Shown piece after piece: positions 11,500-46,170 of a stretch of 64,000 nucleotides of DNA. The notes beneath the pieces are model-generated. The model was not told the DNA's origin. It did not search any database and was given only the letters and a program-made list of their open reading frames with translations. The DNA lies in the IMG/VR virus record IMGVR_UViG_3300042731_004843, positions 44,146-108,145 of that record. One strand, 5' to 3'. A program made the position numbers and the translations under genes. Within the stretch, counting starts at the first letter, position 1, and each line of letters begins with the position of its first letter. The DNA comes from a virus.

Positions 11500-12390
11500 A
11501 TGGCTACCCACGAAGAGCAGCTGCTGGGCCTCCTGGAGAAGATAGGCCAGCCGGAAGAGACCACTGCCGAGGTCCCGTCTGTACTGGACGGGACCTCCAA
11601 TGACGATCACGTCGAGACGTACGGCTCTTCCGAGGACCCCAACACGGAGGCTGAGCACGAAGAGCTGGCGGCAGCCAATACTGACCGGCAAGGGATGCCG
11701 GAAGGTGCGCTGTCCCCAGTCACGAAGCGGAACATGTGGGTGCATCACGACACCCACCCGGTAACATATGATGTGGCCCTCCTGGGCACGTACGGCACAG
11801 ACTGGTTTGAGTGGGAGCCCGGTACCCTCTGGCGTGAGATCAGAGAGGACTTCCGGGTACCCTCTATCAATGACCACGCCAAGGCCAAGATACAGGCGGC
11901 GAAGACGCTGCACATCAATGAATGGTACTGGACGAAGTGGGAAGTGTTCTGCTGGATCACGCAGGCCTTGAACAACAATATCCCGGACTTCCATGTACTC
12001 CAGAAGCCTTCCATAGCGCAGCTGATGCAGTCTGTAGACGCCGCTACGATGGTACGCAATGACGTGGAGTTCACCCCAGAGCTCCAGATGTTCGTGGCGG
12101 CTGCGATGGTAGAGTCCGGTGTATTCTATGCCCCGAAGCCCATAGACTTTTGCCAGGACGAGATCGAGACGCTGCTTGACGAGCTTCAGATAGATAAGAG
12201 CTTGATCGGGCAAGTACAGAGCAGGTGGCGAGAGGTGAAGCAGATCTCTCCAGAGGCGTGGGCGCGTTCTCCAGAACCCGTACTGCGGGAAGACGTGGTA
12301 GACATCCAGGTAGCCAAATTGAAAGTAGCGTGCGATTATCTGGATCTACGTCGTCGCCAACTGCAGGAGCAACTGAGGCTGCTCAAATGA
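11500..12390 (+). CDS. hypothetical structural-region protein
   Basis: Co-oriented, tightly packed upstream of portal. Confidence 0.7.
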   Translation: MATHEEQLLGLLEKIGQPEETTAEVPSVLDGTSNDDHVETYGSSEDPNTEAEHEELAAANTDRQGMPEGALSPVTKRNMWVHHDTHPVTYDVALLGTYGTDWFEWEPGTLWREIREDFRVPSINDHAKAKIQAAKTLHINEWYWTKWEVFCWITQALNNNIPDFHVLQKPSIAQLMQSVDAATMVRNDVEFTPELQMFVAAAMVESGVFYAPKPIDFCQDEIETLLDELQIDKSLIGQVQSRWREVKQISPEAWARSPEPVLREDVVDIQVAKLKVACDYLDLRRRQLQEQLRLLK

Positions 12391-13361
12391 AGCACATCAC
12401 GGCTCCCCACATGCATGGTTTCGTAAATGGGTTGACGAAGGAAGCCATCAACATGCGCAGCTTTATGGATCTCTACCGCAGAGCCGCCGGAAAGACTATT
12501 CCGGGGCACATTGGGAGGGCCACCAGCGCTATCAAGGACACGGCCAAGAAGCATCTGTCTGGTAGATACGGACGGCAGGTTGCCCTGGGCGCAGGCCTCG
12601 GTGCTGCAGGCGGTGCCGCTACTGGTGACGACGAGAACTGGAAAACTAGGGCGCTACAGGGCGCGCTGATCGGTGGTACTGCTGCTGGCGGCCGTATTTT
12701 GGGCACAAAGGTTGGTAGGCAGGCTGCATCGGAAGCCACCAAGAGGTTCGGTGAGCGCCAGCTATACACCTTGACCGGCAAGGGATTCAAAGGCCGGGAG
12801 GTTGGCCTTGAGGACGCCAAAAGATTGGGGATCCTCAAGGTTCCGGAGTGGGAGAAGCTAAAGGATACTCCGGGCGCTGTTAGCCGGGCCGTCTCCAAGG
12901 TCACCGGGAAGCCGGCAAAGACGCAGCTGGGCCGGGAAGCTGGGCGCTATGCTGCCGATGTAGAGGCTTTCCAGAAGGGCTTTCAGAACATCCCTGGTGT
13001 GGTGCACGGCGCTCTGACCCGACCTGGGGAACTCCTACGTAGTGGTTGGCAGAGGGCAGGTACAGCTGGGAAAGTCTTCGCTGGAGCCGGCGCTCTCGAG
13101 GCAGCACGCGCAGCGACCAAGAAACCGGAGGCCGGGGATCCGGGTAGGGCTCAAGCTGCTCTTGGCAGCTTGGGGCGCACGGCCGGTTACTTGGTGGCCC
13201 CCGGGGCTATGCTGGGGCAGGTAGCGGTGGGTGGCCTGGCTGGTAAGGGCGGAGAGGCCGTGGGGAAGATAGGTGATGTGGCGTCTAAGGCCAGGAAGGC
13301 CGCGATCCAAGTCCCGTACCAGCAGTATGCTGACCTAGCCCCGTACTACGGTGGGAGGTAG
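12387..13361 (+). CDS. Gly/Ala/Lys-rich glycine-zipper protein, putative virion cargo
   Basis: Start re-called at ATG 12387; leader ...GFVNGLTKEA, then GAGLGAAGGAATG, GALIGG. Confidence 0.7.
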   Translation: MKHITAPHMHGFVNGLTKEAINMRSFMDLYRRAAGKTIPGHIGRATSAIKDTAKKHLSGRYGRQVALGAGLGAAGGAATGDDENWKTRALQGALIGGTAAGGRILGTKVGRQAASEATKRFGERQLYTLTGKGFKGREVGLEDAKRLGILKVPEWEKLKDTPGAVSRAVSKVTGKPAKTQLGREAGRYAADVEAFQKGFQNIPGVVHGALTRPGELLRSGWQRAGTAGKVFAGAGALEAARAATKKPEAGDPGRAQAALGSLGRTAGYLVAPGAMLGQVAVGGLAGKGGEAVGKIGDVASKARKAAIQVPYQQYADLAPYYGGR

Positions 13362-13363
13362 TC

Positions 13364-15816: not shown

Positions 15817-15825
15817 ACCATCCTC

Positions 15826-16305: not shown

Positions 16306-16306
16306 G

Positions 16307-16557: not shown

Positions 16558-16696
16558 AGACTTCCTCCTGTTTGGGGCTGGAACAGCCTCTGCTTTTACT
16601 CTTCACCCTCCTTATACCCATCTGCCGCAGTATATTTCGTTGCCAGTTCTCCAGTTGATCTGGTAGGTTGTACGAACACATATACGGAGCGGCCTC

Positions 16697-19600
16697 ATGG
16701 CGCGTCTTTCCCCGGAAGAGAGCTTCGAAATTCTCAAGGACCGGGTCGCAGAGACAGTCGGCGGGCTCTTCCCGATCGTAGGGAAGAAGCACACACTGGA
16801 ACTGGGACAGGTCGACGTCAACGACAGGCTTCATATAGACGACATCCGTTCACAGAAGGAGGCCAAGCTGGGTAGCCGGACTTGGGCCGTCCCTGTGGAA
16901 GCTAAGGTCGTCTTACGAGACAACGACACAGGCAAGAGGGTGGATGAGCAAAAACTCCGCCTCATGAGCTTGCCCAAGCACACCAGGCGCTACTCCCACA
17001 TCGTCGATGGCCAGGAGTACCAGATCGACAACCAGTGGCGGCTGAAGTCCGGGGTCTACGCTCGAGTGAAGGACAATGGGGAGCTGAAGTCAGAGTTCAA
17101 CCTGGCCAAGGGCAGGGGCTTCAGCTTGGGGTTCGACCCCAAGAACCGCCAGTTCCACATGTCGTACGGCACCTCCAACATACCGCTGGCCCCGCTGCTG
17201 CAAGAGATGGGTGTGCCACAAGCCAAGATACAGGAGCAATGGGGCTCTGCTATTGCCCAAGAGAACGATAAAGACGTAGAGCAGGCAGTACTGAAGTTCT
17301 ACAAAGCCTCTACGGGTAAGAAGGCGGACGACTACGAGCAGGCGCGGCAGTACATGAAGGACACGCTGACCGCGACAGAGCTGCGCCCAGACACTACGAA
17401 GGTCACGCTGGGCAAAGGGTACAAGTCGGTGACTGGGGACGCTTTGATGGATGCGTCTACCAAGCTGCTGCGCATATCCCAGGGTAAAGCAGAGCCAGAT
17501 CCCAGAGACTCCTTGATGTTCAAGGACCTGCACAGCACGGAGGACTTTTTCGCTGAGCGGATCCAAAAGAGTGGTCGGGACATCACCCGGCGCATACAAA
17601 ACACTCTAGATCGGAAGAAGCGTGTCAGCGACATCGTCGGCCCGGACGTCTTCAATCGCCCCATCAGGACTATGTACCGCACTTCCCTGGCGAATGTCCC
17701 AGATCAAACCAACCCCTTGGAGATGATGTCTGGGCAGATGAAGACCACCATCACAGGCGAGGGAGGCATCAAGAGTTCGCACGCCATCACTGAGGACGCC
17801 AAGCTAGTCGACCCATCACACCTCGGGTATTTGGATCCGATACACACGCCGGAGGGGGCGTCCACAGGCGTGTCCCTGCGCATGCCTATCGGCGTGAAGA
17901 AGAAGGGCCACGATGTCGCCGTCAAGATGTTCAACGTCAAGACAGGCAGACTGGAGGACGTCAATCCAGAGAAGGCCATGAACTCCACTGTCGTCCTGCC
18001 TGACCAAGTTAGGTGGCAGGACGGCAAGCCTACGCCGGCCGGCAAAACGATCAAGATGAGTGGGCCAGGTAATGAGATCGTCGAAGGGCCCATGAAGCAG
18101 GCGGACTACATCATGCGGGACCCCATACAGATGTTCTCCATGGCATCTAATCTGGTCCCTTTCGTGGCAGCAGACCACCCGAACCGCAGCACCATGGCGG
18201 GGAGGCACATGGAGCAGGCAATACCGCTACAACGGCGCAAGGCCCCCTTGGTGCAGAGTGTAGCGGGCACCAAGACTTTTGAGCGGGTGATGGGTGATTA
18301 CGCCGGCCACACCACGCGCTTTGCTGGGGAGGTCGTGGGAATCAAGAAAGACGCCGTCGTCATCAAAGGAGACGATGGCAAGAATCATGAGGTTCAGCTA
18401 TACGATCACTTCCCACTCAACGACGATAAAGGCTTCCTCCACTCGACTCCTACGGTGAAGGTTGGGGACAAGGTTAAAAAGGGCCAGCCGATAGCGGACA
18501 CCAACTTCACAGATGGTGGGGCCCTAGCTCTAGGCACCAACCTCAAAGTCGGATACATGCCCTACAAAGGGTACAACTTTGAGGACGGCATCGTGATCAG
18601 TGAAGGTGCCGCAAAGGAGTTGTCCAGCGAGCACCTTTACCGCAAGACCCTACAACGAGACCGGCAGCACGTGCTGGACAAGAAGAAGTACCAGGCGTAC
18701 GCGCCAGATGCCGTAACTCGAGAGCAATCAGACAAGCTCGATGATGAAGGGGTCATCAAGCCAGGGCAGGTAGTGTCTCCGGGTGATACCCTGATCGCCG
18801 CACTACGCGAGAAGAAGGACACCAAGGAAGATCGCGAGCTCGCACGTATCCACAAGTCTCTAGTCCGGCCGTACACTGATGCCAGCGTGAAGTGGGAGGC
18901 TGACCACCCGGGGGTGGTGCAGGAGGTGGTAAAGAAGGGCAAGAAGTTGGCTGTCCACGTCAAGACTTTGGAGGCCGCTGAAATCGGGGACAAGATCGCC
19001 GGCCGTCACGGCAACAAAGGCATCATCACGAGCATTTTGCCGGATGACGAGATGCCACAGACCAAAGACGGCAAACCACTACAGATTCTGATGAACCCCA
19101 CTGGCGTGCCCGGCCGTACTAACCTCGGCCAAGTGCTGGAGACGGCTGTCGGCAAGATAGCTGAGAAGACTGGTAAGCCGTACACGGTCAAGAACTTCCA
19201 GCCTAATGAAGATCTACACGCCAAAGTTACCGCAGATCTGAAGGCGCACGGGCTACCTACTGACGGAAAAGAAGAAGTCGTGGACCCAAAGACCGGTAGG
19301 GTTTTGGGCAGGATCCTGACGGGGCCACAACATGTGGTCAAGTTGAAGCACCAAGTAGAGAAAAAGATGATCGCCAGGGCTGGTGGACCTGGCTATGCGT
19401 ATGACAGGAACCTGGTACCCAAGGGAGGGGGCCCGCACGGGGCGCAGGCTTTGGGCACTCTCGGCCTCTACTCCATGCTGGCGCATGGCGCTAAGGCCAA
19501 CTTGAGGGAGATGCAGACTCTCAAGAGTGACGCAGGCCAGAGTGATGAATTTTGGGCCGCCCTACAGGCTGGGGAAGCGCTGCCGGCGCCACGTCCCACG

Positions 19601-22600
19601 TTCGCGTACAAGAAATTCACCAGCTATCTCAACGCGCTAGGGGTCAACGTTAAGAAGGACGGCAACAATCTCTCACTCATCCCGTTCACCGATAAGCAGG
19701 TGGAGGAGATGAGTAATGGGCAGATCAAAGACGCAGCCAGGATGGTGCGGGCCAAGGACCTACGCCCAGAGACTGGAGGGCTGTTCGATCCCAAGACCAC
19801 TGGCGGTGTTGACGGTACGAAGTGGAGCCACATTCGTCTGGCCGAGGCTATGCCCAACCCCTTGTTCGAGCGGGCGATACAGAGCCTCACCGGACTAGAT
19901 CAGAAGAAGTACACGGATCTGGTTACTGGTAGGGCGGCTTTGGATAAGAGCGGCAACCTGACCTCCAACTTGGACGCCGGCGTAACCGGTGGTGCTGCAA
20001 TAGATAGTCTGCTCAAGAAGGTCGACACCAAGACGGCACTGGAACAGGCGCAGAAGGAGCTGGACAACCCCAACCTGAAGGGCAACCGCCTCGACCAAGC
20101 CAACAAGAAGGTCAAGTTCCTGCGGGCGCTAGATTCCGCAGGACTGAATGCCCGGGACGCGTACATGATGCAGAACGTACCGGTCCTGCCGCCGTCCATG
20201 CGCCCCATCTCCCAGCTACCTAATGGCGATCTCAATTTTGACGACGTCAATGGCCTCTACAAGGGGCTGCACCTAACGTCGTCCCAATTAAAGAAGCAGC
20301 AGTCTAGTAAGTTGCTGCCGCCAGAAGAGATGCAAGAGACCAGGGAGGAACTCTATGATGGGCTACGTGCATTAACTGGTTTGGGCGGCAATCCAAGGCA
20401 GGAGTTCCGCGGCATCCTGGACGTGATCGGAGGCAAAAGACTGGAGACGTCTGGTGGCCGGGCAACTGGTAGAAAGGTGGGCTCACCAAAGGAGGGCTTC
20501 TTTCAGAAGAAGTTGGTGCAGAGAAAGCAGGACCTCTCTATGCGGTCCACCATCATCCCCGAGCCGGCACTAGCTTTGGACGAGGTGGGGCTGCCCAGAC
20601 GTGCGGCGCTTGAGCTCTACAAGCCATTTGTGGTTAGGGAGCTGCGCAACATAACTGGCGCTTCCCCATTGGAAGCGCAGAAGAAGATCGGAGAGGGCGG
20701 ACAGTTGGTAAACAGGGCGCTTGAGCGTGTGGTAGAAAGCCGCCCCGTCTTGTTGAAGAGAGACCCGGCACTGCACAAGTACAGTGTGCAGGCCTTCAAG
20801 CCGCGCATTGTGGGCGGCAAGGCTGTCCAGATCCACCCGCTGGTGACCTCCGGCTACAACGCAGACTTTGACGGGGACACGATGGCCGCCTTCGTGCCCG
20901 TGAGTAATGAGGCCGTTGAGGAAGCCAAGAAGATGTACCCCTCGAGGAACCTTTTCAGCCCCTCGACTGGCAGCTTGATGTACTCCCCTACGCTGGAGAC
21001 CCAGCTTGGTCTGTACGGCATCACGCAGCAAACCGGAAAGAAGACAGGCAAGCAGTTCAAGGACATCAAAGAGGTCCACTCCGCTTTGAACAAGGGCCAG
21101 GTAGGCCTCAATGATACTGTCCGAGTGGGTGGCCTGACGTCCACGACGGGTAAGTTTCTGGTGGGGGAGGCGCTACCAGAAGATATGCGCAAGGATTTCC
21201 TCAAGAGGAAAGACCCCCTGGACAAGGCCGGGCAAAAAGAGCTGCTTACAACACTGGCCAAGCAGCACCGCAATGACTACGGGGAGGTGGTCAACAAGCT
21301 AAAGGACCTGGGCAATCGCTGGTCGACGGATACCGCGTTCTCTATTGGTCTGGACGACATCAAGCCGGAGACACGGACGAGAGATAAGATCTTGAAGGCC
21401 GCGGAGAAGCGAGTGGCTGCGGCAGGCGGCAAACCAGAAGCGGCCATACGGGAATTCGACAAAGCCACGCAGGAGATGGCCAAAGAGTTCGCCAAGATGC
21501 CAGAGGGCCGTAGCGCGCTGCTCACTATGAACCGTTCCGGTATCAAGCCCTACAACGACACTCTTCGGCAGATCAAGATGGCCCCCATGCTGATCGCTAA
21601 CGCCAAAGGAGAGGTCATCCCCACTCCGGTACGCAAGTCCTACGCAGAGGGCCTGGATTTGGCAGACTACTGGACCTCGATGAGTGGGGCACGCAAGGGC
21701 ATCATCCAGAAGGTACAACAGGTCCAAGAGCCTGGGTACTTGTCCAAGCAGGTTATGAATTCTGTGATGAACAACACGATCGCGGACAATGACTGCGGTA
21801 CGGACAAGGGTATTGCGCTGCCGACAGACGAGAAGGATATCCTAGACAGGTACACGGCTGCGCCAGTACGGGCTGGAAAGAAGACCATACCCGCAGGTAC
21901 GTTGGTCACTCCAGAAGTACGGAACACGTTGCGTAACAACAGGGTAGGGCGGGTGGTGGTGCGCTCTCCTTTGCGCTGCCAGCACGGCCCAGGTCTCTGT
22001 AAGAAGTGTTACGGCCTTACTGAAGACGGAAGAGAGCCGGAAGTAGGCTTGAATGTGGGCGTGTTGGCCGGACAGGCACTAGGTGAGCGCGCCACCCAGC
22101 TGGCTATGAAATCCTTCCACACGGGGGGCACTGTAGCGACCAAGGAGGGCCTGGTAGATGAGTTTCAGCGGGTAAAGAACTTGCTGCTCTTCCCCAAGAC
22201 TCTGCCGGGATCTGCTACTCTGTCTACCGTGAACGGCAAGGTAGACAAGATAGAGAAGGACCCTGCCGGTGGACACAACGTGTTCATCTCTGGGGAGAGG
22301 CACTACGTTCCCCAGAAGCGGGGCGTGCCCATGATGGGCGGAAAGACATTGCGCAGAGGGGCCCAGGTTAAGAAGGGTGCCGCGATCTCCGGGGGGGTGG
22401 TGAACCCGCACGATATGCTGCCGCTGACTGGTGTGGAGCCCGTACAGGGCTACCTATCCAATGAGCTGCACAACATCTACGGGCCTCATGGTATCCGCCG
22501 CAGGAATACCGAAGTGGTGGTCAAGTCGCTAACGAATCTCACCAAGGTGGATGATCCCGGAGACCACCGTGAGTTCATCCGTGGCGACTTTGCGCCACAA

Positions 22601-22855
22601 ACACTGGTCGCGAATATGAACAGGCGAGACAAAGGCAAACGGCCTGTACGCCACACACCAATCCTCAAGGGCGTGGACATGCTACCGCTGGACATGCAAG
22701 AGGATTGGATTGCTAGAATGAATCACCAACGACTGTCTCAGACAGTCGTGGCGGCAGCGCAGCAGGGGTGGACCAGCAAGCTGCATGGTAAGCACCCTAT
22801 TCCTCCGGTTGTTTATGGTGCAGAGCTGGGCAAAGCAAAACCTGGAGAATACTAA
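16697..22855 (+). CDS. phage DNA-directed RNA polymerase, fused beta + beta' single polypeptide (2052 aa)
   Basis: beta motifs HTPEG, GYNFEDG, GDKIAGRHGNKG, MNPTGVPGRTNLGQ; beta' motifs GGLFD, VPVLPPSMRP, NADFDGD (20858-20878), bridge helix GARKG, trigger loop GERATQLAMKSFHTGG. Confidence 0.96.
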   Translation: MARLSPEESFEILKDRVAETVGGLFPIVGKKHTLELGQVDVNDRLHIDDIRSQKEAKLGSRTWAVPVEAKVVLRDNDTGKRVDEQKLRLMSLPKHTRRYSHIVDGQEYQIDNQWRLKSGVYARVKDNGELKSEFNLAKGRGFSLGFDPKNRQFHMSYGTSNIPLAPLLQEMGVPQAKIQEQWGSAIAQENDKDVEQAVLKFYKASTGKKADDYEQARQYMKDTLTATELRPDTTKVTLGKGYKSVTGDALMDASTKLLRISQGKAEPDPRDSLMFKDLHSTEDFFAERIQKSGRDITRRIQNTLDRKKRVSDIVGPDVFNRPIRTMYRTSLANVPDQTNPLEMMSGQMKTTITGEGGIKSSHAITEDAKLVDPSHLGYLDPIHTPEGASTGVSLRMPIGVKKKGHDVAVKMFNVKTGRLEDVNPEKAMNSTVVLPDQVRWQDGKPTPAGKTIKMSGPGNEIVEGPMKQADYIMRDPIQMFSMASNLVPFVAADHPNRSTMAGRHMEQAIPLQRRKAPLVQSVAGTKTFERVMGDYAGHTTRFAGEVVGIKKDAVVIKGDDGKNHEVQLYDHFPLNDDKGFLHSTPTVKVGDKVKKGQPIADTNFTDGGALALGTNLKVGYMPYKGYNFEDGIVISEGAAKELSSEHLYRKTLQRDRQHVLDKKKYQAYAPDAVTREQSDKLDDEGVIKPGQVVSPGDTLIAALREKKDTKEDRELARIHKSLVRPYTDASVKWEADHPGVVQEVVKKGKKLAVHVKTLEAAEIGDKIAGRHGNKGIITSILPDDEMPQTKDGKPLQILMNPTGVPGRTNLGQVLETAVGKIAEKTGKPYTVKNFQPNEDLHAKVTADLKAHGLPTDGKEEVVDPKTGRVLGRILTGPQHVVKLKHQVEKKMIARAGGPGYAYDRNLVPKGGGPHGAQALGTLGLYSMLAHGAKANLREMQTLKSDAGQSDEFWAALQAGEALPAPRPTFAYKKFTSYLNALGVNVKKDGNNLSLIPFTDKQVEEMSNGQIKDAARMVRAKDLRPETGGLFDPKTTGGVDGTKWSHIRLAEAMPNPLFERAIQSLTGLDQKKYTDLVTGRAALDKSGNLTSNLDAGVTGGAAIDSLLKKVDTKTALEQAQKELDNPNLKGNRLDQANKKVKFLRALDSAGLNARDAYMMQNVPVLPPSMRPISQLPNGDLNFDDVNGLYKGLHLTSSQLKKQQSSKLLPPEEMQETREELYDGLRALTGLGGNPRQEFRGILDVIGGKRLETSGGRATGRKVGSPKEGFFQKKLVQRKQDLSMRSTIIPEPALALDEVGLPRRAALELYKPFVVRELRNITGASPLEAQKKIGEGGQLVNRALERVVESRPVLLKRDPALHKYSVQAFKPRIVGGKAVQIHPLVTSGYNADFDGDTMAAFVPVSNEAVEEAKKMYPSRNLFSPSTGSLMYSPTLETQLGLYGITQQTGKKTGKQFKDIKEVHSALNKGQVGLNDTVRVGGLTSTTGKFLVGEALPEDMRKDFLKRKDPLDKAGQKELLTTLAKQHRNDYGEVVNKLKDLGNRWSTDTAFSIGLDDIKPETRTRDKILKAAEKRVAAAGGKPEAAIREFDKATQEMAKEFAKMPEGRSALLTMNRSGIKPYNDTLRQIKMAPMLIANAKGEVIPTPVRKSYAEGLDLADYWTSMSGARKGIIQKVQQVQEPGYLSKQVMNSVMNNTIADNDCGTDKGIALPTDEKDILDRYTAAPVRAGKKTIPAGTLVTPEVRNTLRNNRVGRVVVRSPLRCQHGPGLCKKCYGLTEDGREPEVGLNVGVLAGQALGERATQLAMKSFHTGGTVATKEGLVDEFQRVKNLLLFPKTLPGSATLSTVNGKVDKIEKDPAGGHNVFISGERHYVPQKRGVPMMGGKTLRRGAQVKKGAAISGGVVNPHDMLPLTGVEPVQGYLSNELHNIYGPHGIRRRNTEVVVKSLTNLTKVDDPGDHREFIRGDFAPQTLVANMNRRDKGKRPVRHTPILKGVDMLPLDMQEDWIARMNHQRLSQTVVAAAQQGWTSKLHGKHPIPPVVYGAELGKAKPGEY

Positions 22856-23169
22856 TGAACGAGATCCAAATGGCCAGCATGTCAGACGAGATAGGTAAGA
22901 TCAAGCAAGCCGGTATCGGTAGCGTGCTCAAAGGCGTGGGCAAGTTCTTCAAGGGTGGTCTGGAGGGGGCAGGACAGCTGGCTAGTAAGTCTGGGCGGTC
23001 AGGGTTGTGGCAACAGACTAAGAGCCTCCCTGGGCAGATGCGAGAGTCCTTCCGACAAGGTGGCCTGGCCGGAGCAGGAAGAACGCTGGCGGGGTCTACT
23101 CCCGCTCAGATAGCTGGCGTGGCTGCGGTCCCGTTCGCTGCTGGCAGATTGTCGAAGCGAGACAACTAG
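22855..23169 (+). CDS. small cationic amphipathic protein with acidic leader ending KQA
   Basis: MNEIQMASMSDEIGKIKQA|GIGSVLKGVGKFFKGG... Confidence 0.75.
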   Translation: MNEIQMASMSDEIGKIKQAGIGSVLKGVGKFFKGGLEGAGQLASKSGRSGLWQQTKSLPGQMRESFRQGGLAGAGRTLAGSTPAQIAGVAAVPFAAGRLSKRDN

Positions 23170-32848: not shown

Positions 32849-34894
32849 ATGATCGTCAAGGTCTGCCAGTTCAAGGCTCGACGAGAACGAGGTGAGCGTC
32901 TCGTTGAAGTCTTCCAGCCCGGAGACATGGAGAAGGCGGCCGCCTTCTTTGGTGGGGAGCAGCAGTCTGCCGTGGGGCACCCGTACAGGGGTGGTATGGC
33001 TAAGACCGCGGCGCCCATGTTGCCCGAGGTGCAGGCCTACCTAGAAAAGTTACGCCCCGATTCCAACAGAATCTACGTCCTCGTCAATGCCCTTGGAGCT
33101 GGAGAGTTCTGGGGCTCGAACATCAACGGGGACTACTTCCCTGAAGCCTCCTTGATCCACAAAGGCCCAGTCTACGGGTACGAAACCTTCTATGGGGCCT
33201 TCCCTTACAAACACCATGTCAACAAGGACCCCAGCAGGTCCTTCGGTAAGGTGGAGCTAGCCGTCTGGAATGACCGCATGAAGCGTGTAGAGCTCGTGGT
33301 CATGATCGACAGGGCTCTGGCCGCAAGGTTCGGTGCGCAGGATGTCTGCGACAAACTGGACCATGGGCTGTTCCCAGACGTCAGCATGGGGTGCAAGGTA
33401 CCCTACGACCTCTGCTCCAAGTGCCTAGACTGGGAGAAGTACCGCCGGGCACAGTCCACCTTTGATCCTACTCGCCACCGTTCGGTGGGGGCCGCCGTAC
33501 TGGAGTTCCACAAGAAGAATCCTATCCGTGGGCTCTCTGTCACTCGCGATGACTACTGTGAGCACCTCAAGACGATGCTCAACCGCATCCTTGGGGACGG
33601 TGTTAAGGTCTACGCGATCAACGACTACCCCCGCTTCTTCGACATCTCGTTCGTGTTCATAGGCGCGGACAAGACAGCAAAAGTCATGGCAAAGTTGGCT
33701 TCGGCACATACTGGGGGGGCCATATATGTTGTCGAGCCATCTTGGCAGGTGGCGGAGAATCTGGGGTACGAGCAGCCCTCCACGGAGAAGGAGCTCGAGC
33801 TGGAGAAGGCGGCCGCCGTGCAGTGGATCGCACGTGGAGGTCCCAAGCTCCGGCAGGCAGCTAGAACCGTGACGAAGGGGGTTCGGGGTAAAGCTACGAC
33901 AGTCAAGGAGATCGGGGGAGAAGCAGCCGAACGTGTCCTGGAGCGTAAAATGGAGCGCACGAAGGGCAAGGAGAAGCTGTCAGGCATCGAGGCGGTGCTG
34001 GCCAAGCTGCAAGAAAAAAGGGCTTCCCAGTCCAAGGGCGCGGAGATTATAAAGGAAGTCGTTCCGACACAATTCGGTAGTAAGGCTGTGCCTTTGGAAG
34101 GATCAAAAAGACCAGATCTACCTGATGAGGTCCTAGACGCTCTGGGCGGATGTCCATTGAGCGAGGCCCTCTCCACTCCCACCACGATGGGCATGGTACT
34201 GAAGCCCCGCGAGTTCCAGCGCATCACCATCATCCATGTTGGCAAGAAGCCCCTGGCCGACGCACTGGACAAAGACGGGAAGTTGTTTGCTCCTGTAGAA
34301 GGATCGGACACCTCTGTACCAATGGGCGGAGAGCACTTCAGCGAGATGCTGAAGAAGCTCCTGTTGCCGTTTCTCGAAGATCGCAGCTGCCTAGAGCCCA
34401 TCGCCAAGCGCAGACTCATCCGGGTCACGGTCGGCAAGCAGCCGGAGCACGAAGACCCGGATCGGGAATATGTGCAAGATGACCCCTTCCTACAGAAGAT
34501 CTCCTCAGCCTATAATGGCTACCTAGATCGCTTCGTGGACTGTTGGAGGGACGCGCCAGTGATCGTAGATCAGCACGCTGATCTTTGGGAGGCGGTGTTC
34601 AGGGAGGGCGTGGGAGACGGCTTCTCGAAGGAGGCTGCGGGTACAAGGGTGAATCCGGCTGTGGTTTTGGCAGGTATCGGGGCCGGATACGGACTGAGCG
34701 AGTACGCACGATGGCAGCGAGAAAAAGCCAGGATGGGGAGTCGGGCGCCAGTGGGTCCTGTCATGGACACGCTAGCGGAGTACCCGAAGCTCTTGGCAGC
34801 GCTGGGCGGTCTCGCTGCTTTAAAACAACAAGGTTCCAAAATCCCGGACAGATTGTTCCACGGCATCAAAGGTGCGATCACGATGGGTAAATAG
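32849..34894 (+). CDS. prohead maturation protease (HK97/assemblin-type fold) with C-terminal extension
   Basis: NINGDYFP, KHH (His), VSMGC (Ser), FFDISFV..GADKTA; upstream of scaffold and MCP. Confidence 0.75.
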   Translation: MIVKVCQFKARRERGERLVEVFQPGDMEKAAAFFGGEQQSAVGHPYRGGMAKTAAPMLPEVQAYLEKLRPDSNRIYVLVNALGAGEFWGSNINGDYFPEASLIHKGPVYGYETFYGAFPYKHHVNKDPSRSFGKVELAVWNDRMKRVELVVMIDRALAARFGAQDVCDKLDHGLFPDVSMGCKVPYDLCSKCLDWEKYRRAQSTFDPTRHRSVGAAVLEFHKKNPIRGLSVTRDDYCEHLKTMLNRILGDGVKVYAINDYPRFFDISFVFIGADKTAKVMAKLASAHTGGAIYVVEPSWQVAENLGYEQPSTEKELELEKAAAVQWIARGGPKLRQAARTVTKGVRGKATTVKEIGGEAAERVLERKMERTKGKEKLSGIEAVLAKLQEKRASQSKGAEIIKEVVPTQFGSKAVPLEGSKRPDLPDEVLDALGGCPLSEALSTPTTMGMVLKPREFQRITIIHVGKKPLADALDKDGKLFAPVEGSDTSVPMGGEHFSEMLKKLLLPFLEDRSCLEPIAKRRLIRVTVGKQPEHEDPDREYVQDDPFLQKISSAYNGYLDRFVDCWRDAPVIVDQHADLWEAVFREGVGDGFSKEAAGTRVNPAVVLAGIGAGYGLSEYARWQREKARMGSRAPVGPVMDTLAEYPKLLAALGGLAALKQQGSKIPDRLFHGIKGAITMGK

Positions 34895-34979: not shown

Positions 34980-35618
34980 ATGGACGAGCAACTCGCACAG
35001 ATCTACGGCACCGGACAGCCCGTGGCCCACGATGAGGAAGACCTTCAGAAGACCGCGGCCGCTGAGCTGCTGGTCAAGCTGGCTGAATCAAATGGCGTCT
35101 CTCTGGATCAGTTCTCTGATGAGGACATCCAGGGGATGATCACCGAGCTGTACCAGGACAAGGAAGCCGCGTCCAAGTGCAGTGAGGGTATGCCGCCCTT
35201 CCCGCCCAAGAAGGACGAGAAGGAAGACAAGAAGGACAAGGGTGAGGACGAGGGCGACGAGAAGAAGGAGAAGGAAGCTCAGGCCAAGTTCGCAGAGGCC
35301 GACTTCCTGGGCCGCGTCATGGCGCACGCCATGGTGCAGGAGCTCAACAACATCGACAAGACGGCATCGCCCCAGCAGCAAGAGAAGCAGGCGGCAGCTC
35401 CCGAGCAAGGAGCTGCCCTGGAGCAGCTCGCTCAGCAGCGTGCGTGGGAGATGGCCAAAGAGGCCGGCTACGTGGATGAGCAGGGCAACCTAATCACCCC
35501 GCAGCAGCCACCGAAAGAGAAGACTTCCGCCCTGAAGCAGGCCGTGGATTTCCGCGCTCTCCAGCTCTTGGAGGAGGCGGGTCTGCCTGTCGAGTGGAAG
35601 GATCAAGGCAAGGAGTAG
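34980..35618 (+). CDS. putative scaffold/internal head protein
   Basis: Acidic, low complexity, many KxA sites. Confidence 0.7.
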   Translation: MDEQLAQIYGTGQPVAHDEEDLQKTAAAELLVKLAESNGVSLDQFSDEDIQGMITELYQDKEAASKCSEGMPPFPPKKDEKEDKKDKGEDEGDEKKEKEAQAKFAEADFLGRVMAHAMVQELNNIDKTASPQQQEKQAAAPEQGAALEQLAQQRAWEMAKEAGYVDEQGNLITPQQPPKEKTSALKQAVDFRALQLLEEAGLPVEWKDQGKE

Positions 35619-35637: not shown

Positions 35638-35946
35638 GTGCAAGGTATTAACATGTCGGCGTTTTATCAGGAGATCGAGAAGATCGCGGCTCAGGCCAGG
35701 TCTTCTACTAGCGTGTGGTCGTCCAAGACAGTTGGGGCGGCCCGCTCTAAGTCTACCGGGCAGCAGACTGCCAAGGCGCCGACCACTCCTAGCAGCCTAA
35801 ACGTCAAGATCCCCTCGCCCGGTAAATACGGGCCGAGACAAAACTACTCTCAACCGAACGTCGTGACCGCACCTCCGGCCAACCCCATGCAGGGAGCGGG
35901 AGCACGCAATACCCCGCCACCTAATGTGGTTTTCGGTGTGCGGTAA
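35638..35946 (+). CDS. small putative virion protein with AFYQEIEKIA leader
   Basis: Shared leader motif. Confidence 0.7.
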   Translation: MQGINMSAFYQEIEKIAAQARSSTSVWSSKTVGAARSKSTGQQTAKAPTTPSSLNVKIPSPGKYGPRQNYSQPNVVTAPPANPMQGAGARNTPPPNVVFGVR

Positions 35947-35959: not shown

Positions 35960-37309
35960 ATGGAGTTCACGCTTCAAGAGCTCGTTCAGCAGACGCTGGC
36001 CGAAGCCGAAAATCGGGTAAAGACGGCCGCGGCCGCCAAGCCCGAGGATGAGAAGCAGGGGTCTCCGGCTAAGACGGATCCTTCGAACACTCCGAGCACT
36101 GCTCCGGAGCGTAACGAGGAAGGTATCAGCGAGAAGACCGCCACGGCGTTCGTGGAGAAACTAGCGAGCGCGGTGCAGTACCTCAACGAGAACTACCTCG
36201 AGAAGGATGCCGTCGGCAAGCCGGAGCCACCAACAGCCCACACCCCGCCACAGGCGGACTCGGGCGTCGGGGCGGGCAAAGGCACCGGCGCCATGCCTAC
36301 CAACGTGGACAAGCCCACTTCTGGTATGCAATCTGAGGAGACTGGCCAGGCCACTCCTCAGCAGCAGCCGCCAACCAACCCCGGACAAGACGTCAAGTCC
36401 CCCGGGCAGGTGAATCCAGCCACCGCCATGCAGACGGACATGAATGACCGTCCCGGCGGCTCGGAAGACTGGACCAACACGGACAAGATGAAGCAGGCAG
36501 GTCTGGCTGCATTGCGTGAGGCAGCAGCCAGTCAGACGAAAGAGGCCAAGGTCTACGACGTCGCTGCCAAAAAGGGCCTGGGCAGGGTCGGTCAGCTGTT
36601 GTCCGGCTCTCGCGCAAAGGGCCTGAAGCTGATGGAGCAGATGGGTGGGGCAGCCAAGGGCGCAGCCAAGTCTGAGGCCCGCAAGGTAATGGCCACCAGG
36701 GCCGGTGCCGGTGGCCTAGCTGCTGTAGGTGCCGGAGCGGCCGCTGCGAAGAAGCTCAAGGGCAAGAAAGACGAGTCCACCAAGGAAGCCCAAGTAGCTC
36801 GCATCCTCGACATCATGAGCAAGATGGCGGCGGACGCGGAGAACCCGGCAAAGATCGGTGCTAAGGCGACCAACCCGCACCAGTCCAGCCCGGAAGGGGC
36901 ATCTGAGTCCGAGAAGGACGTGCCCTCCCAGCCGGGAGAAGTGTCCAAGCAGGAATCGATGGTCGGCTCCAACCAGTCGGCTATCGACTACACCAAGGGT
37001 CAAGCGAAGGCCGTGGCCAAAGCACGGATGCGTGAGGTTCTAGACGAACCAGCTCAGAAGAAGTCGACGGACCCGGTCCTTCATAACAACCTCACTGCTA
37101 CTGGCAAGGCCGGTGTGAAGATCGCATCGCCCGAAGCCGGAGCGGCAGCGAGGGCCCTCCTCGAGAAGATCGCGGAGGAAGGGGCAAGCCCAGATGCAGG
37201 CCCCGAGCAGAAGGAGAGAGCTTCTAAGCTGCAGGAGCTCTTGCAGAATCGTCAGGAGTCCCAGCAGGGGGCCCTGGAACCCAACATGCCCGTTAGCGGC
37301 GGGTACTAG
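35960..37309 (+). CDS. putative scaffold/internal head protein
   Basis: AAGGAGG SD; about 10 KxA sites, disordered. Confidence 0.7.
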   Translation: MEFTLQELVQQTLAEAENRVKTAAAAKPEDEKQGSPAKTDPSNTPSTAPERNEEGISEKTATAFVEKLASAVQYLNENYLEKDAVGKPEPPTAHTPPQADSGVGAGKGTGAMPTNVDKPTSGMQSEETGQATPQQQPPTNPGQDVKSPGQVNPATAMQTDMNDRPGGSEDWTNTDKMKQAGLAALREAAASQTKEAKVYDVAAKKGLGRVGQLLSGSRAKGLKLMEQMGGAAKGAAKSEARKVMATRAGAGGLAAVGAGAAAAKKLKGKKDESTKEAQVARILDIMSKMAADAENPAKIGAKATNPHQSSPEGASESEKDVPSQPGEVSKQESMVGSNQSAIDYTKGQAKAVAKARMREVLDEPAQKKSTDPVLHNNLTATGKAGVKIASPEAGAAARALLEKIAEEGASPDAGPEQKERASKLQELLQNRQESQQGALEPNMPVSGGY

Positions 37310-37318: not shown

Positions 37319-37702
37319 ATGAGCAAAGAGAAGATCAGTGCAGCCCAGGCGGCTCAGGTCTACTCGGAGGTCCCGGGCGTACTTCGTGCCCTAGCTTCCG
37401 AGCGTGATGAGCTGCTCACCAAAGTAGCCGGCCTTCAAGAGAAGGTAACGGAGTACGAGGAGCGCGACCGCATCGAGAAGATCGCTCGAGCCATGGAGGA
37501 CAAGGGCATCGACCCGAGCACTTCCCTGGTGGAGAAGAGCGAGAGGATCAAAGAGGCCGCGCAGAAGGGCAGATCACTCGACGCTATCGAAGAGGCTGTC
37601 GAGATGACCGCTCCTAATGGCGAGCTGGCAAAGCTCGCTGAGGAGAGGCCGGGTAACGGTGTGTCTCAGCTTGAGGCTTACCTGACGGACGCCCAGTCCT
37701 AG
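37319..37702 (+). CDS. putative scaffold protein
   Basis: Coiled coil, EKIA/KVA/KLA sites, precedes capsid genes. Confidence 0.7.
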   Translation: MSKEKISAAQAAQVYSEVPGVLRALASERDELLTKVAGLQEKVTEYEERDRIEKIARAMEDKGIDPSTSLVEKSERIKEAAQKGRSLDAIEEAVEMTAPNGELAKLAEERPGNGVSQLEAYLTDAQS

Positions 37703-38231: not shown

Positions 38232-39353
38232 ATGAGCGTTCCCGCAAGAGTACTGAATGACCTCTTTTCCCAGAAGCTGGGCACCAGCGAGGGGAAGGAA
38301 AAGATCGCGGAATACGCAGGCACCTACATTCGTGACCGGCTGCGTGAAGTCAGCTTTGCGCGCAAGATTCTGCCCCCGCAGATGGTCACCCGTGCGGACT
38401 GCCAGCGTTCCGTCAACCACGACACCCTGGTGAAGATCATCGACGTCGAGCCCAAGAGCCGCGCGATGGCCATCACCTTCCGCGGTCAGCCGACCGCACG
38501 GTTCATCCGCGCTCCCAGGGCGGAGGTTCCGTTCTTCACCGTCTCGAGCGAGAAGTTCGAGAAGACCGAGCAGGAGCTCCTGGCCTACGAGATGCCGATC
38601 ACCAAGGTGATCGAGGACAACTCGGTCAAGGACATCCAGGAGATCGAGGACCGTGAGTTCACGATCCACATCGAGGCGGCTGTCCAGGCCCTCCAGGCGG
38701 AGGCCAATGGCGGCGTCACGACCACCCTGAATGCCACGTCGGTTCAGGCCGGTACCGTGGTGGAGTTCTCGGTGCGCAAGGGTGAGCTGGCCCGCAACGC
38801 CACCACCGATGACGGCACCGTCTATCCGGTACAGAGGCCGGACTTCGTCAACCTCTTCAAGCTGTTGGACGGCAACAGGCTGCGCGCGGAGATGGTTCTC
38901 ATCACCGAGGTGGACTGGGACGACATCCTACAGTGGACCGTTGAGGATTTCGGTGACCGCGTCCAGTCCGAGACGACGGTGGACGGCTACAAGTACAACC
39001 TGCTTTTGGGCCGGGCGTACTGCCGCACCATCAAGACGGACATCCTTCGTCCAGGCAACATCTACTGCTTCACCAAGCCGGACTTCTTTGGCCGGTTCTT
39101 CATCCTGAACAACACCAAGTTCTACATCGACAAGATCGCGAACCTGATCACGTGGCAGTCCTGGGAGGACATCGCCATGTCGGTCATCAACATCGCGTCG
39201 GTGCGGAAGGTGGAGCTGTACTCGGGTGACGCGACATCCAACGACGCCGATGGTATCCTCTCTTCGGTCATCCCCGTGGACGAGGAAGATCTAGGCGCTG
39301 AGAACAACCGAGTCGATTCCGGCCTGGTGTTCCCGGGTGTCGAGGTCTTCTAG
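38232..39353 (+). CDS. major capsid protein
   Basis: IRDRLRE.SF.RKIL, DIQEIEDRE, PDFFG motifs; strong codon bias; followed by terminator. Confidence 0.8.
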   Translation: MSVPARVLNDLFSQKLGTSEGKEKIAEYAGTYIRDRLREVSFARKILPPQMVTRADCQRSVNHDTLVKIIDVEPKSRAMAITFRGQPTARFIRAPRAEVPFFTVSSEKFEKTEQELLAYEMPITKVIEDNSVKDIQEIEDREFTIHIEAAVQALQAEANGGVTTTLNATSVQAGTVVEFSVRKGELARNATTDDGTVYPVQRPDFVNLFKLLDGNRLRAEMVLITEVDWDDILQWTVEDFGDRVQSETTVDGYKYNLLLGRAYCRTIKTDILRPGNIYCFTKPDFFGRFFILNNTKFYIDKIANLITWQSWEDIAMSVINIASVRKVELYSGDATSNDADGILSSVIPVDEEDLGAENNRVDSGLVFPGVEVF

Positions 39354-40406: not shown

Positions 40407-40421
40407 TCCGCTGAGGCGCTC

Positions 40422-40937: not shown

Positions 40938-41006
40938 ACAATGGTAAGTACGATAATGGTTGCTATCCTTGCTGTGCAGTCGTACGCTACTTCTATGGAG
41001 GTAGCT

Positions 41007-41774
41007 ATGGCAAAAGTACGCTTGGATCATGGGCTGATCGTACGTCTTTACCAAGAGGGTAAGTCTGCTGCTGAAGTGGCAGTGGCGGCAGGTTGCTCGA
41101 AACCTGGGGTGCTTCATGTGTTACGTCTACACGAAGTGCCACTTCGTGTAGGGGCTAAAAGATCAGATACGGAGAGGCGTCTAGGGTTTCAGCCGACGAA
41201 GACGTGGGTACTCTCTCTGCTACAAGAAGCGGATAGCGCAAAGCAGGCAGCAGAAAAAGCCAACGTCCCGTACTCTACATTTATCGACTGGATGGACAAA
41301 TTGGACGTCTCTCGGGCCCCCTGGCGCGGTGGGCCCAGAAGCGGCAATGCGCGCAGACAAGAGATCCCCATCGAGGAGGCGATTGCACTTTCCAATGAAG
41401 GCACGCCGTATGCGGAGCTCGCTGCTCGCTACGGCGTTTCCTACGGAGTTGTCTGCCGCCGGATGAAGGATGCCGGCCACGTGTCACCCAAAAACAAGCA
41501 GACCAAGCACTCCCAGTTCCGCCACGTACAGGTGCAGAAGCGTCGGGTTCTGAACGAGTTAGGCATTACTACCTGTCAGATTTGTGGCGAGAGCAGGTCC
41601 CTGGACTATTCTCACATCGTGGCTGATAGGGACGGCGGGCCTATCGCCGCCGACAATTGTCTTGTTTTGTGTCCTTCGCACCATCGATTTTTCGATAGCG
41701 ATTCCCTGACGTCGGCCGAATGGCGTAAGATTTCTCGCAAGGTATTGGCGGCAAGGAAGAAGTACGCCGTTTAG
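41007..41774 (+). mobile_element. free-standing HNH homing endonuclease with N-terminal HTH repeats
   Basis: CQICGE.....SHI....GG....N...LCPSHH; start re-called at ATG 41007 (GGAGG); more AT-rich than flanks. Confidence 0.8.
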
Positions 41775-41783
41775 GAGGACGAG

Positions 41784-42248: not shown

Positions 42249-42258
42249 GAGGGTCACG

Positions 42259-43587: not shown

Positions 43588-43596
43588 GAGAAGACG

Positions 43597-44715
43597 ATGG
43601 ACACCTTCTTGACCGAACTGTACGAGGAAGCACAAGAGAAGAGGGCCTCTGCTGAGCTCCAAGACTTCATGAAGTCTATGGATCGTGATGACTTGGAGGC
43701 TTTCTTGGGGCTGGACAAGCAGGCCGTGGCCGGACCTGCCGAGGGCGAGATGCCCGCCAACTGGCAGGGCAAAGAGCTGGACGCCTCCCAAAAGGCCAAG
43801 GACGACTACCTGGCTCAGGAGCACCAGGGCACGCCCAAGTCGGTAGAGAAGACCGACAAGTGGGCCCAGACCTGCAACAGCCAGGAAGGCACATCCAAGG
43901 TCAAGTCGGACAAAGAGGATGAGCCGAAGACCAAGGCCGCGGAAGCCAAGTTCCAGGCAGCCGATGCCATCGGCAGGATGTTCGCCAAGCAGGCGTCTTT
44001 GGGCTCTTACTTGGGGGCCAAACGTTCCGACAAGAAGCGTGAAAAAGAGAAGAAGTCCCAGGGTCTGGGCTCTGACATGGCAGCCATGGACTCCGGGCTG
44101 GAGAACACGGCCGAGGCCAAGATCGCCAGGATCTTTGGCGCGGGCGAGCCCTCAGAGACTATGTACAGCGACAGGGTTCCTTACGACGTGCGTGAGCGCG
44201 CGTTCAAGGGCTACCTGCAGCAGAAAAGCCAAGAGGCACCGACCGGCCTAGCCAGAGCCTTAGGTGGCGGGGCCGCGGTAGGCGGGGGTCTGGGAGCCCT
44301 CTTGGGTGCCGGTACTGGTGGGGGCAAGGGCGCGCTGATCGGTAGTGGAATCGGGGCTGGGCTAGGCGCTCTAGGTGGCGCCGGCATGCGCGCCGCCGAC
44401 AAGTCAGAGATCGCCCGCACCAAACAGGAACTGGCTAGCGGGGACCTTCCACTGGCTATGGCCCATAGGATCGGGGACTACGAAAGCAGTAGAAATTTTG
44501 CCGAGGAGATGAGGCGCCAGCAGGCGGACTCCAAGACAGATCGCCGGCACAGAGAGCACATGGACGTCCTTAGAGGGCGGGGCAGCACCAAGAAAGCGGA
44601 AGCCAAAGCCAAGATCGCCCAGATGGCCATGAAAGTCTCCGAGGGCGCTCCTGAACACGTCAAGGCTGCTGCTGTCTTCATGGCCGGTCGTAAGATGGCT
44701 GAGCTCTCCAAGTAG
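43597..44715 (+). CDS. glycine-zipper putative virion protein
   Basis: GGGLGALLGAG...GALIGSGIGAGLGALGG; EKRAS, KQAV, KTKAA, KQAS. Confidence 0.72.
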   Translation: MDTFLTELYEEAQEKRASAELQDFMKSMDRDDLEAFLGLDKQAVAGPAEGEMPANWQGKELDASQKAKDDYLAQEHQGTPKSVEKTDKWAQTCNSQEGTSKVKSDKEDEPKTKAAEAKFQAADAIGRMFAKQASLGSYLGAKRSDKKREKEKKSQGLGSDMAAMDSGLENTAEAKIARIFGAGEPSETMYSDRVPYDVRERAFKGYLQQKSQEAPTGLARALGGGAAVGGGLGALLGAGTGGGKGALIGSGIGAGLGALGGAGMRAADKSEIARTKQELASGDLPLAMAHRIGDYESSRNFAEEMRRQQADSKTDRRHREHMDVLRGRGSTKKAEAKAKIAQMAMKVSEGAPEHVKAAAVFMAGRKMAELSK

Positions 44716-44720
44716 CAGCC

Positions 44721-44900
44721 ATGAACCCGCAGACCCTACAAGGGATGGCCGATGAGCTCGAGAAGATCGCCACCGGGGGTCAGTTCAAGTTCATGGGCAT
44801 GGCCGACGATGAGAAGAGGCGCACCTTGGCCATGAGCAAAAACCTCAACCAGAGCCTCGGCAAGGTACTCACCCACGAGTACAAGGACGACAAGAGGTAG
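44721..44900 (+). CDS. 59-aa protein with ADELEKIA leader
   Basis: Not in ORF track; MNPQTLQGMADELEKIATGGQFKFMG...; fills the gap between neighbouring genes. Confidence 0.7.
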   Translation: MNPQTLQGMADELEKIATGGQFKFMGMADDEKRRTLAMSKNLNQSLGKVLTHEYKDDKR

Positions 44901-45812
44901 ATGGCCAACCTCGTAGTCACTAAGCCCCTGGTCCGGGGGTTCTCCCTGGACTTCCTGGAAGTCACCTGGGAGATAGAGGACACCTCTCTTGATCCCCACG
45001 ACTTCCAGTTCCAGCTCTTCCGGAGTGAGTCTCCGATGGGGCCATGGGATCAGATCGCCGGGCCCTTTGAGGATAGATACCGCTTCGTGGACAATCAGGT
45101 GAATCTGCTCCACAGGTGGCGGCAGATTTACTACAAAGTCCGGAGCACGGAGAAGGCCAATGCGGACAACTACGTGGATAGTGAGGCCTTCACCTTCCAC
45201 GCAGAACCAGACCTGATCGCGGAGGAGATCCAAAGGCTCGAGCGCATAGTGTGGGAGGAATACGCCGGCAGGCGGTGCTTCATCTTCCCGGCACGCACCT
45301 TTGGTCAGCGGTGCGGCAACTGCTACGACGGCCCGGAGAAGGGCAAGGGGTTCACTTCCCAGCGCCGTAGGTCTAACTGCCTGACATGCTACGACACCGG
45401 GTATGCGCGCGGATACCTAGATCCCATTGAGATCTTCGTCCAGATAGACCCCTCTTCCAAATCTGTCCAGACCGTACCTGTGGCAGAGCGGCAGCAAGTG
45501 GACACGACAGCACGTTTGCCTAACTTCCCACTGCTAAAACCCAGGGATATAATCGTCGAGACTGAAAACAGGAGGTGGCGGGTAGTCAAGGTGACTTCTA
45601 CGGAACGGCTCAGGAGCGTCGTCCACCAGGAACTCCAATTGCACGAGCTGGTGGCGGGCGACATCGAGTTCCAGCTTCCCATCAGACTAGAAGATTTGAG
45701 AGACTTTGAGCCGAGCCCTGGTAGGAACTTTACGAACCCCCATAACCTGGAGGGCTTCGAAGCAGAGGCGATCAAACATGCTTTCGCAGTCTACGGGTAC
45801 GGGAATGATTGA
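44901..45812 (+). CDS. putative neck/head-closure protein with Zn motif
   Basis: FN3-like N-terminus, RC..C...C..CYDTGY..GY, P.LKPRDII.E....RW.V. Confidence 0.6.
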   Translation: MANLVVTKPLVRGFSLDFLEVTWEIEDTSLDPHDFQFQLFRSESPMGPWDQIAGPFEDRYRFVDNQVNLLHRWRQIYYKVRSTEKANADNYVDSEAFTFHAEPDLIAEEIQRLERIVWEEYAGRRCFIFPARTFGQRCGNCYDGPEKGKGFTSQRRRSNCLTCYDTGYARGYLDPIEIFVQIDPSSKSVQTVPVAERQQVDTTARLPNFPLLKPRDIIVETENRRWRVVKVTSTERLRSVVHQELQLHELVAGDIEFQLPIRLEDLRDFEPSPGRNFTNPHNLEGFEAEAIKHAFAVYGYGND

Positions 45813-46170
45813 TTACTCCGCCTTCCACGGTGAGATCGAGAAGATCGCCGCGGACAACGACAAAGGCAGAATCACGAAGGAAAAGCTCAAGAGATTTGCA
45901 ATCGCAGCTCCGGTAGCAGCCGGTGGTGCAGCCCTGGGACACGGCGTTGGCCAGCTAGTAAGGCGTAATGTCCTATCTCCGCGCACCTTGCAGGCCCTGG
46001 ACGCTGCCGCAAAGCGGAAGCCCTTGGTGGCCAAAGCAGTAGGCGCTCTCCCGGCTGTGGCCGGTGGGTTGGCTGCTGGTGCCGGGATGATGCAGGCGAT
46101 GAAGGCGCGGCAGATGCGGGACTTCATCGAGGGAAAGAAGGAAGATGGCGGACGTACCGACACCCAGTAG
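45805..46170 (+). CDS. small amphipathic protein with AFHGEIEKIA leader
   Basis: Start re-called at ATG 45805; two hydrophobic Gly/Ala segments. Confidence 0.72.
   Translation: MIDYSAFHGEIEKIAADNDKGRITKEKLKRFAIAAPVAAGGAALGHGVGQLVRRNVLSPRTLQALDAAAKRKPLVAKAVGALPAVAGGLAAGAGMMQAMKARQMRDFIEGKKEDGGRTDTQ

Follow-up and report, generated by a model that had tools for sequence, protein, structure and literature searches.

Why would a series of otherwise unrelated small proteins encoded by one phage begin with nearly the same short peptide? The question is raised by a 64,000-nucleotide stretch of viral DNA (the window), which forms the right-hand part of a viral contig of 108 kb in IMG/VR (record IMGVR_UViG_3300042731_004843, positions 44,146 to 108,145; estimated completeness 58%). 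The original prediction, made from the letters of the window, had picked out seven open reading frames (ORFs) that share an N-terminal leader, (F/M)xxE(I/L)EKIA, and had proposed that this leader is a portable packaging tag ending in a cleavage site, by analogy with the capsid-targeting sequence (CTS) of the T4 internal proteins. We put the chances at a little better than even (roughly 55%) that the leader is a T4-CTS-like N-terminal propeptide, which is removed by the phage's own head protease with a specificity for residues other than glutamate. Positions given below are those of the window, features lie on the plus strand unless stated, and the genes of the whole 108-kb genome were delimited by a crude gene call.

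A leader shared by otherwise unrelated proteins

All seven of the cited N-termini were found as described, and each of the seven ORFs carries the leader, some directly and some in a diverged form that is backed by orthologues. The 97-residue ORF at 35653–35946 begins with the leader MSAFYQEIEKIA (35653–35688), and 25 orthologues keep the pattern aFF[DE]EL.K[ILV][AG]; its predicted mature part is basic (isoelectric point (pI) 11.9) and rich in Ser, Thr, and Pro. The leader reported for this ORF is present, but the GTG at 35638 from which it had been read is not the start. Because the orthologues all begin M-(S/T/A)-A-F, we place the start at ATG 35653. The 121-residue ORF at 45805–46170 has the leader MIDYSAFHGEIEKIA (45805–45849), which its orthologues keep, and a basic predicted mature part with Gly-zipper-like segments. 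A 59-residue ORF (44721–44900; leader MNPQTLQGMADELEKIA, 44721–44771), said to have been missed by the ORF track, is indeed there, and is an orphan with no homologue in the relatives. It occupies a variable slot (44716–44900) between the 43597 and 44901 orthologues; at one related locus (L007) this slot holds a different leader-bearing ORF of 62 residues and at another (L024) no gene, with only three loci being informative.

The four weaker leaders are substantiated by their orthologues, which carry either the strong form or a conserved K-x-A. The 104-residue ORF at 22855–23169 has the diverged leader ..SMSDEIGKIKQA↓GIG (the arrow marks the bond at which cleavage is predicted), and its positional counterparts in two relatives read SFIDELEKIG (G001) and AFLSELSEIEKQG (G005). 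Similarly, the diverged leader ..HGFVNGLTKEA of the 324-residue ORF at 12387–13361 corresponds to SAFVDELNKTA and LAFVDELEKLA in orthologues. The leader of the 372-residue ORF at 43597–44715 is MDTFLTELYEEAQEKRA↓SAEL, of which the K and A are conserved and the middle residue is variable. The 240-residue ORF at 32123–32845 (NPVDEFL, linker, KQA↓GFL) represents a second type of leader, in which NPV(D/E)EFL is followed by a linker and K-x-A↓GF. The linker varies from 0 to ~20 residues among orthologues, and from these sequences the leader and the K-x-A site of this family look like two separable elements. The conserved core of the main type is F-F-(D/E)-E-L-x-K-(I/L/V)-(A/G), or, in its fuller form, a-F-F-(D/E)-E-L-x-K-(I/L/V)-(A/G). 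The consensus first proposed needs adjusting, in that neither the E preceding the K nor the A at the end is invariant.

The phenomenon is wider than the range originally reported (12387–46170), with at least ten further ORFs in this 108-kb genome, and there are about twenty otherwise unrelated carriers per genome. Uncited ORFs in the window comprise an acidic one of 296 residues (11500–12390; ..QLLGLLEKIG↓Q), one of 670 residues (24448–26460; N-terminal ..KLTFEKLG↓M, with TFEKTA and FVKIAA in orthologues), one of 305 residues (30898–31815; conserved L-x-(M/L)-G-K-x-A-A at residues 26–33), and one of 103 residues (31812–32123; a.EK.[AG] site at residues 16–20, GMEKMG). Beyond the reported range, a basic protein of 186 residues (52338–52898) has the sites DLAKVA↓G, MEKAA↓S, and LLEKEA↓GF. 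The carriers outside the window have GLFSELEKIG, SFFDELVKLA, DFLEALGQVKEA, PAFFGELEKIG, SFFEEMEKIA, and ALQSELEKIA. No strict leader was found in the 141 kb covered of Salmonella phage Arash, which, judged by the major capsid protein (MCP; 28% identity), is the closest cultured relative.

Two leader-like stretches were noted apart from these. One (DFISELEEIGAKK, residues 17–29, with Glu replacing Lys) lies in a non-structural ORF on the minus strand (57367–58050) and is probably due to chance. The other, LWEELEKCAA, stands directly ahead of LLPHQ, a sequence similar to an SNF2-type helicase motif, at the start of a 470-residue protein of a relative (G005:C1:100600–102012), which may be an enzyme carrying the tag.

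Several controls bear on how specific the motif is. The window, translated in six frames, contains EKIA six times, each time in a plus-strand coding frame and between 35.6 and 45.9 kb. Three of the six form E[IL]EKIA at residues 7–17 of small ORFs (35653, 44721, and 45805); one is at residues 23–26 of the MCP, and two are inside proteins encoded between the protease (see below) and the MCP. At the level of the whole genome, a DNA pattern for EKIA gave eight forward matches and no reverse ones, with 0 and 2 for the backwards control. In a set of 80 related loci (1.04 Mb), EK[ILVM]A was found 435 times on the gene strand vs 6 times on the opposite strand. Its 431 occurrences in plus-strand coding frames compare with 14–108 for 22 of the 23 other residue orders, or roughly ten times the level of scrambled orders; the matches of the one remaining order, K[ILVM]AE (334), overlap with those of EK[ILVM]A.

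The motif is also restricted by position and by strand. In the plus-strand genes of this genome (G000), the strict pattern was found 7 times in the first 35 residues (2520 residues in total) vs twice in 22910 interior residues. Three complete relatives gave 6 vs 4, 4 vs 3, and 7 vs 2, with interiors that are 5–6 times longer, and all of their carriers are co-oriented with the MCP gene. When these four genomes were pooled, the strict leader started at residues 0–10 in 17 cases and at residues 10–20 in 6, and beyond the first 20 residues it was at least 19-fold rarer (≤0.01 per 100 residues); scrambled controls had a flat position profile. Virion genes lie in plus-strand blocks of the window and replication-type genes in minus-strand blocks. 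A motif equally frequent in non-structural genes, which the original prediction had named as evidence against packaging, is not what we observed: the 44 minus-strand, replication-type genes of G000 are free of strict leaders.

Synonymous positions of the leader codons vary freely, so the constraint is one on the peptide; for the same reason, an element acting at the nucleotide level, such as a promoter, an RNA structure, or a recombination box, was ruled out as the source of the shared start. At the level of protein, the alignments of six families keep K and A/G in fixed columns, with a variable residue between them; this is the case for the 43597, 34980, 31812, and 35960 families, in which Lys is followed two residues later by Ala/Gly. 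N-terminal sites carry an extra upstream signal, aromatic at −5 (3.0-fold), acidic at −3/−2 (~3-fold), and aliphatic at −1, which internal matches lack. Once the leaders are removed, the carriers of this genome show no relationship to one another, and the claim that the downstream sequences are unrelated holds at the level of BLAST. Among all sequences fetched, 58 distinct strict-leader carriers fell into 30 BLAST-unrelated clusters, which is an upper bound since a single family may be counted more than once where its diverged members appear as singletons. The leaders are acidic, and 13 of 16 predicted mature products are basic (pI 9–11.9). PHROGs and Pfam detected no recognizable domain in the cargo proteins, which, being mostly small and basic, appear by analogy more like the T4 internal proteins than like effectors.

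The K-x-A/G site and a candidate head protease domain

The end of the leader recurs in the proteins of the head module, which is ordered terL (28098), protease (32849), two scaffold-like proteins (34980 and 35960), and MCP (38232). The MCP (38232–39353) has a conserved EGKEKIA↓EY at residues 20–28, the K-x-A of which (residues 23–26) stands just before the region that matches the major-head-protein profile (residues 32–328) and would define a putative 26-residue propeptide (38232–38309). At the homologous place, the Arash MCP has VKEA↓G. The 212-residue acidic scaffold-like protein (34980–35618) has a conserved EEDL(E/Q)K.A↓AAELLVKLA at residues 19–35, and the 449-residue Ala/Pro-rich one (35960–37309) has NRVKTA at residues 18–23 together with FVEKLA↓S and LLEKIA↓E near its C-terminus. 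Next to them, a 127-residue coiled-coil-like protein (37319–37702) has a conserved internal DRIEKIAR. The common denominator of all sites, in the MCP, the scaffold-like proteins, the protease flanks, and the leaders, is K-x-A/G. Its presence in the MCP and the scaffold-like proteins, and on either side of the protease domain, is what one would expect of a prohead-protease cleavage site.

The scissile bond is probably the one after Ala/Gly, given the analogy with herpesvirus assemblin and the frequency of Ser, Ala, and Gly as the next residue. At this P1′ position, S, A, or E is most often found, along with many other residues. Neither known rule describes the sites. A T4-type hydrophobic-x-Glu was rejected as a general rule: the leaders hold F-D-E, but the protease flanks (GMAKTA and VMAKLA) and several other sites have no Glu. 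The herpesvirus rule (aliphatic P3, Ala P1, and Ser P1′) does not fit either, as P3 is Lys. Our search of the literature found no publication of such a K-x-A site or of its cleavage, and the accessible text likewise yielded no cleavage data on phage G or any other relative.

The candidate protease is encoded at 32849–34894, as part of a 681-residue protein. Its core (residues 55–284; 33011–33700) has the assemblin/gp21 prohead-protease fold and is flanked by the conserved K52-T-A54 and K282-L-A284, for which the consensus sequences are M-x-K-(T/V)-A↓A and V-M-A-K-L-A↓S, respectively. H123, S179, and D187 are invariant in 64 of 64 diverse family members. The model of the core (md1586ab66be2) was built from an alignment of these 64 sequences, which were taken from a family with 3,075 cluster representatives, and has a predicted local distance difference test score (pLDDT) of 94.3; it supersedes an earlier fold from 16 sequences (pLDDT 58), for which matches were tied at Z ~4. 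With VIA-align, the model matched the varicella-zoster virus protease (1vzv_A; Z 11.0, root-mean-square deviation (rmsd) 3.2, 118 residues aligned), T4 gp21 (5jbl_A; Z 9.8, rmsd 2.8, 133/165 aligned), and the proteases of human cytomegalovirus (8j3s_A; Z 8.1) and Kaposi's sarcoma-associated herpesvirus (Z 5.8), with unrelated folds from Z 5.5 down. The two best Foldseek matches were likewise herpesvirus proteases, with weak E-values.

Many homologues (P0123, P0125, P0133, P0134, and P0152) carry one to three inteins, with Hint and LAGLIDADG domains. Their commonest insertion site, PDVSMG↓C (here and in the next motif the arrow marks the insertion), is two residues past the invariant S179, and a second site is KVPFDT↓C. 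Inteins tend to lodge in active-site motifs, and their location two residues after S179 is therefore in keeping with this serine as the candidate nucleophile. The homologue of the protease domain in Arash is gp222 (L089:16036–17511; hhalign probability 100%, E 3e-43), which is annotated only as a "structural protein" and keeps both of the sites that flank the core. In the segment at 32924–33010 (residues 26–54 of the same 681-residue protein), an additional MEKAAAFF site and ~16 inserted residues precede M-x-K-T-A↓A in this genome and its closest relatives; M-x-K-T-A↓A itself is conserved universally.

Weighing the explanations

How might leader, site, and protease fit together? In the explanation that we favour, the last residues of the leader, (hydrophobic)-x-Lys-x-Ala/Gly, would be the recognition site of the capsid-maturation protease, namely the N-terminal domain of the 681-residue protein. 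Head maturation would then proceed as it does in T4 and phiKZ, with this enzyme shortening the shell protein, cutting up the scaffold, freeing itself, and taking off the leaders. The F-F-D-E-L portion, a small acidic amphipathic helix that internal sites lack, would most likely recruit the tagged proteins to the prohead core, and the cargo would stay in the head alongside the DNA, with which it might be ejected, whether or not any of it acts as an effector. There is precedent for each half of this scheme: proteases of the gp21 type take off N-terminal propeptides and process themselves (PMC5694885, PMC10052503), and the T4 internal proteins are diverse, with only a conserved CTS as a common feature (PMC3012670). 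The analogy with T4 and the notion of a portable tag have gained comparative evidence, in the form of a portable element whose end is common to the MCP, the scaffold-like proteins, and the protease flanks; cleavage and packaging are the parts that we infer. More tentatively, and at somewhat less than an even chance, the scheme may describe a large and almost wholly uncultured clade of 110–200-kb phages, with a gp21/assemblin-fold head protease whose Lys-x-Ala specificity has no described counterpart in any phage and a portable, acidic amphipathic capsid-loading tag of 9–12 residues, F-F-D-E-L-x-K-I-A, by which each phage would pack some 10–20 fast-evolving proteins, mostly basic or Gly-zipper ones, for delivery with the DNA.

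A number of observations weigh against the favoured explanation. All characterized phage proteases of this fold cut after Glu (PMC5694885), and Lys-x-Ala would be a departure. The Pfam Peptidase_S77 (T4 gp21) and Peptidase_S78 (HK97) profiles matched nothing in the genome at E ≤ 10, and profile searches of PDB sequences gave no link to solved proteases; H123, S179, and D187 stand as candidate catalytic residues. Some leader-bearing genes are far from the head module, and the amphipathicity of the leader is only modestly above that of shuffled sequences. Finally, the mass spectrometric coverage of Arash virions (Yousefi et al., 2023; PMC10585845) fits a kept as well as a lost MCP propeptide, in a data set of 116 proteins that includes metabolic enzymes and has implausible values in the coverage column for some entries.

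The best surviving alternative, which we regard as unlikely, is that the element is a cleavage site and nothing else. The head protease would then cut at K-x-A and recognize F-F-D-E-L through an exosite, and the proteins would enter the head via other contacts. Such a reading accommodates the MCP and the scaffold-like proteins, which have K-x-A but not F-F-D-E-L, and proteases of this fold can recognize extended substrates; moreover, phage SPN3US packages many head proteins unprocessed (PMC10052503). The variable linker of the 32123 family, however, is hard to fit with one contiguous epitope and suggests two functions, and in the T4 precedent targeting and cleavage are coupled (PMC3012670).

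Alternatively, the motif might stay on the protein as an uncleaved docking helix, with K-x-A as a binding face for a common partner such as the scaffold, the portal, the inner surface of the shell, or a chaperone. The motif and its flanks are compatible with a modestly amphipathic helix, and in several families conservation runs on past the A (A-[SA]-A-E-L-L). We nevertheless find this improbable, as the sites bracket the protease core, precede the profile region of the MCP, and recur along the scaffold-like proteins, which is the classic layout of maturation cleavage.

Much further down the scale is an export or other cellular leader that is read by the host machinery, either a leader of the double-glycine bacteriocin type or a site for a host protease, as when Prp cleaves the head proteins of staphylococcal phage 80alpha. 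While E-L-x-x-I-(A/G) is loosely like double-glycine leaders and some orthologues end in GG or AG, the spacing is unlike the double-glycine consensus, and the site is common to the MCP, the scaffold-like proteins, and the phage's own protease. In addition, the motif is kept across thousands of phages from many environments and presumably many hosts, which makes this explanation very improbable. That the motif has no function at all, and reflects chance, composition, or hidden paralogy of small ORFs, is barely credible: short motifs can recur by chance in Ala/Glu/Lys-rich proteins and some BLAST singletons really are diverged members of one family, but the explanation is contradicted by our controls, namely the excess over scrambled orders, the N-terminal enrichment in four genomes, the restriction by strand and module, and the conservation of aligned columns despite free synonymous variation.

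Neighbouring genes and known systems

The remainder of the virion region offers few landmarks. The large terminase gene, terL (28098–29927), was assigned from PHROGs and Pfam matches. When nearly all plus-strand proteins were searched against these two collections, the only matches were to the terminase, the MCP, an HNH endonuclease, and, weakly, to spike or Gly-zipper proteins. The HNH endonuclease/helix-turn-helix protein (PHROG matches; 40941–41774), which lies among the head genes downstream of the MCP gene, is probably a homing endonuclease. At 23170–24435, the Phage_base_V OB domain and the Gp5_C repeat of Pfam are matched weakly, which points to a tail spike of the gp5 type and, hence, to a contractile tail. 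The virion block also includes a 2052-residue ORF (16697–22855); Arash has split genes resembling the β-subunit of RNA polymerase nearby. The MCP has at least 328 relatives in IMG/VR, many of them from contigs of 120–195 kb.

Were the favoured explanation correct, the packaged, and perhaps injected, proteins of thousands of uncultured large phages could be predicted by a rule of sequence, although these proteins are otherwise without any annotation. The capsid-protease fold that is common to tailed phages and herpesviruses would gain a new substrate specificity, a family of >3,000 clusters that includes Arash gp222 would be assigned a function, and a candidate tag would become available for loading foreign proteins into phage heads.

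The closest parallel is the T4 CTS, which is found on IPI–III and Alt and is processed by gp21. In both systems, a short N-terminal peptide is found on otherwise unrelated and mostly small basic proteins, its terminal motif recurs at the MCP propeptide and in the scaffold, and the two proteases agree in fold. The differences are that the T4 leader ends in L/I-x-E, whereas F-F-D-E-L-x-K-I-A has a predicted site at Lys-x-Ala/Gly; that there are ~20 carriers per genome here, as compared with a handful in T4; and that a second type of leader with a variable linker is present here. Unlike gp21, the protease is the N-terminal domain of a 681-residue protein and has no Pfam S77 match, and packaging and cleavage are predictions here.

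Herpesvirus assemblin (MEROPS S21) cuts its maturation and release sites at (V/L/I)-x-Ala↓Ser. It gave the best structural matches, and the two have in common Ala at the (here predicted) P1, Ser or Ala at P1′ (common here), and sites that flank the protease domain. They differ in the Lys at P3, in the range of P1′ residues beyond Ser, in the phage context, and in the leader shared by cargo proteins. The phages phiKZ (gp175) and SPN3US (gp245; both MEROPS S80) are likewise large phages with virion RNA polymerase genes, in which many head proteins have N-terminal propeptides and the protease processes itself (PMC5694885, PMC10052503). Their proteases cut after Glu, at (S/A/G)-x-E or A-x-E, in contrast to the K-x-A code here, and their propeptides are long and have no shared short tag, in place of the conserved 9–12-mer described above. 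Lastly, DarB of phage P1 also has an N-terminal signal, which suffices for loading into the head (PMC9024508). The Dar proteins, however, have neither a shared consensus nor a link to a cleavage motif, whereas here one consensus is found on many proteins.

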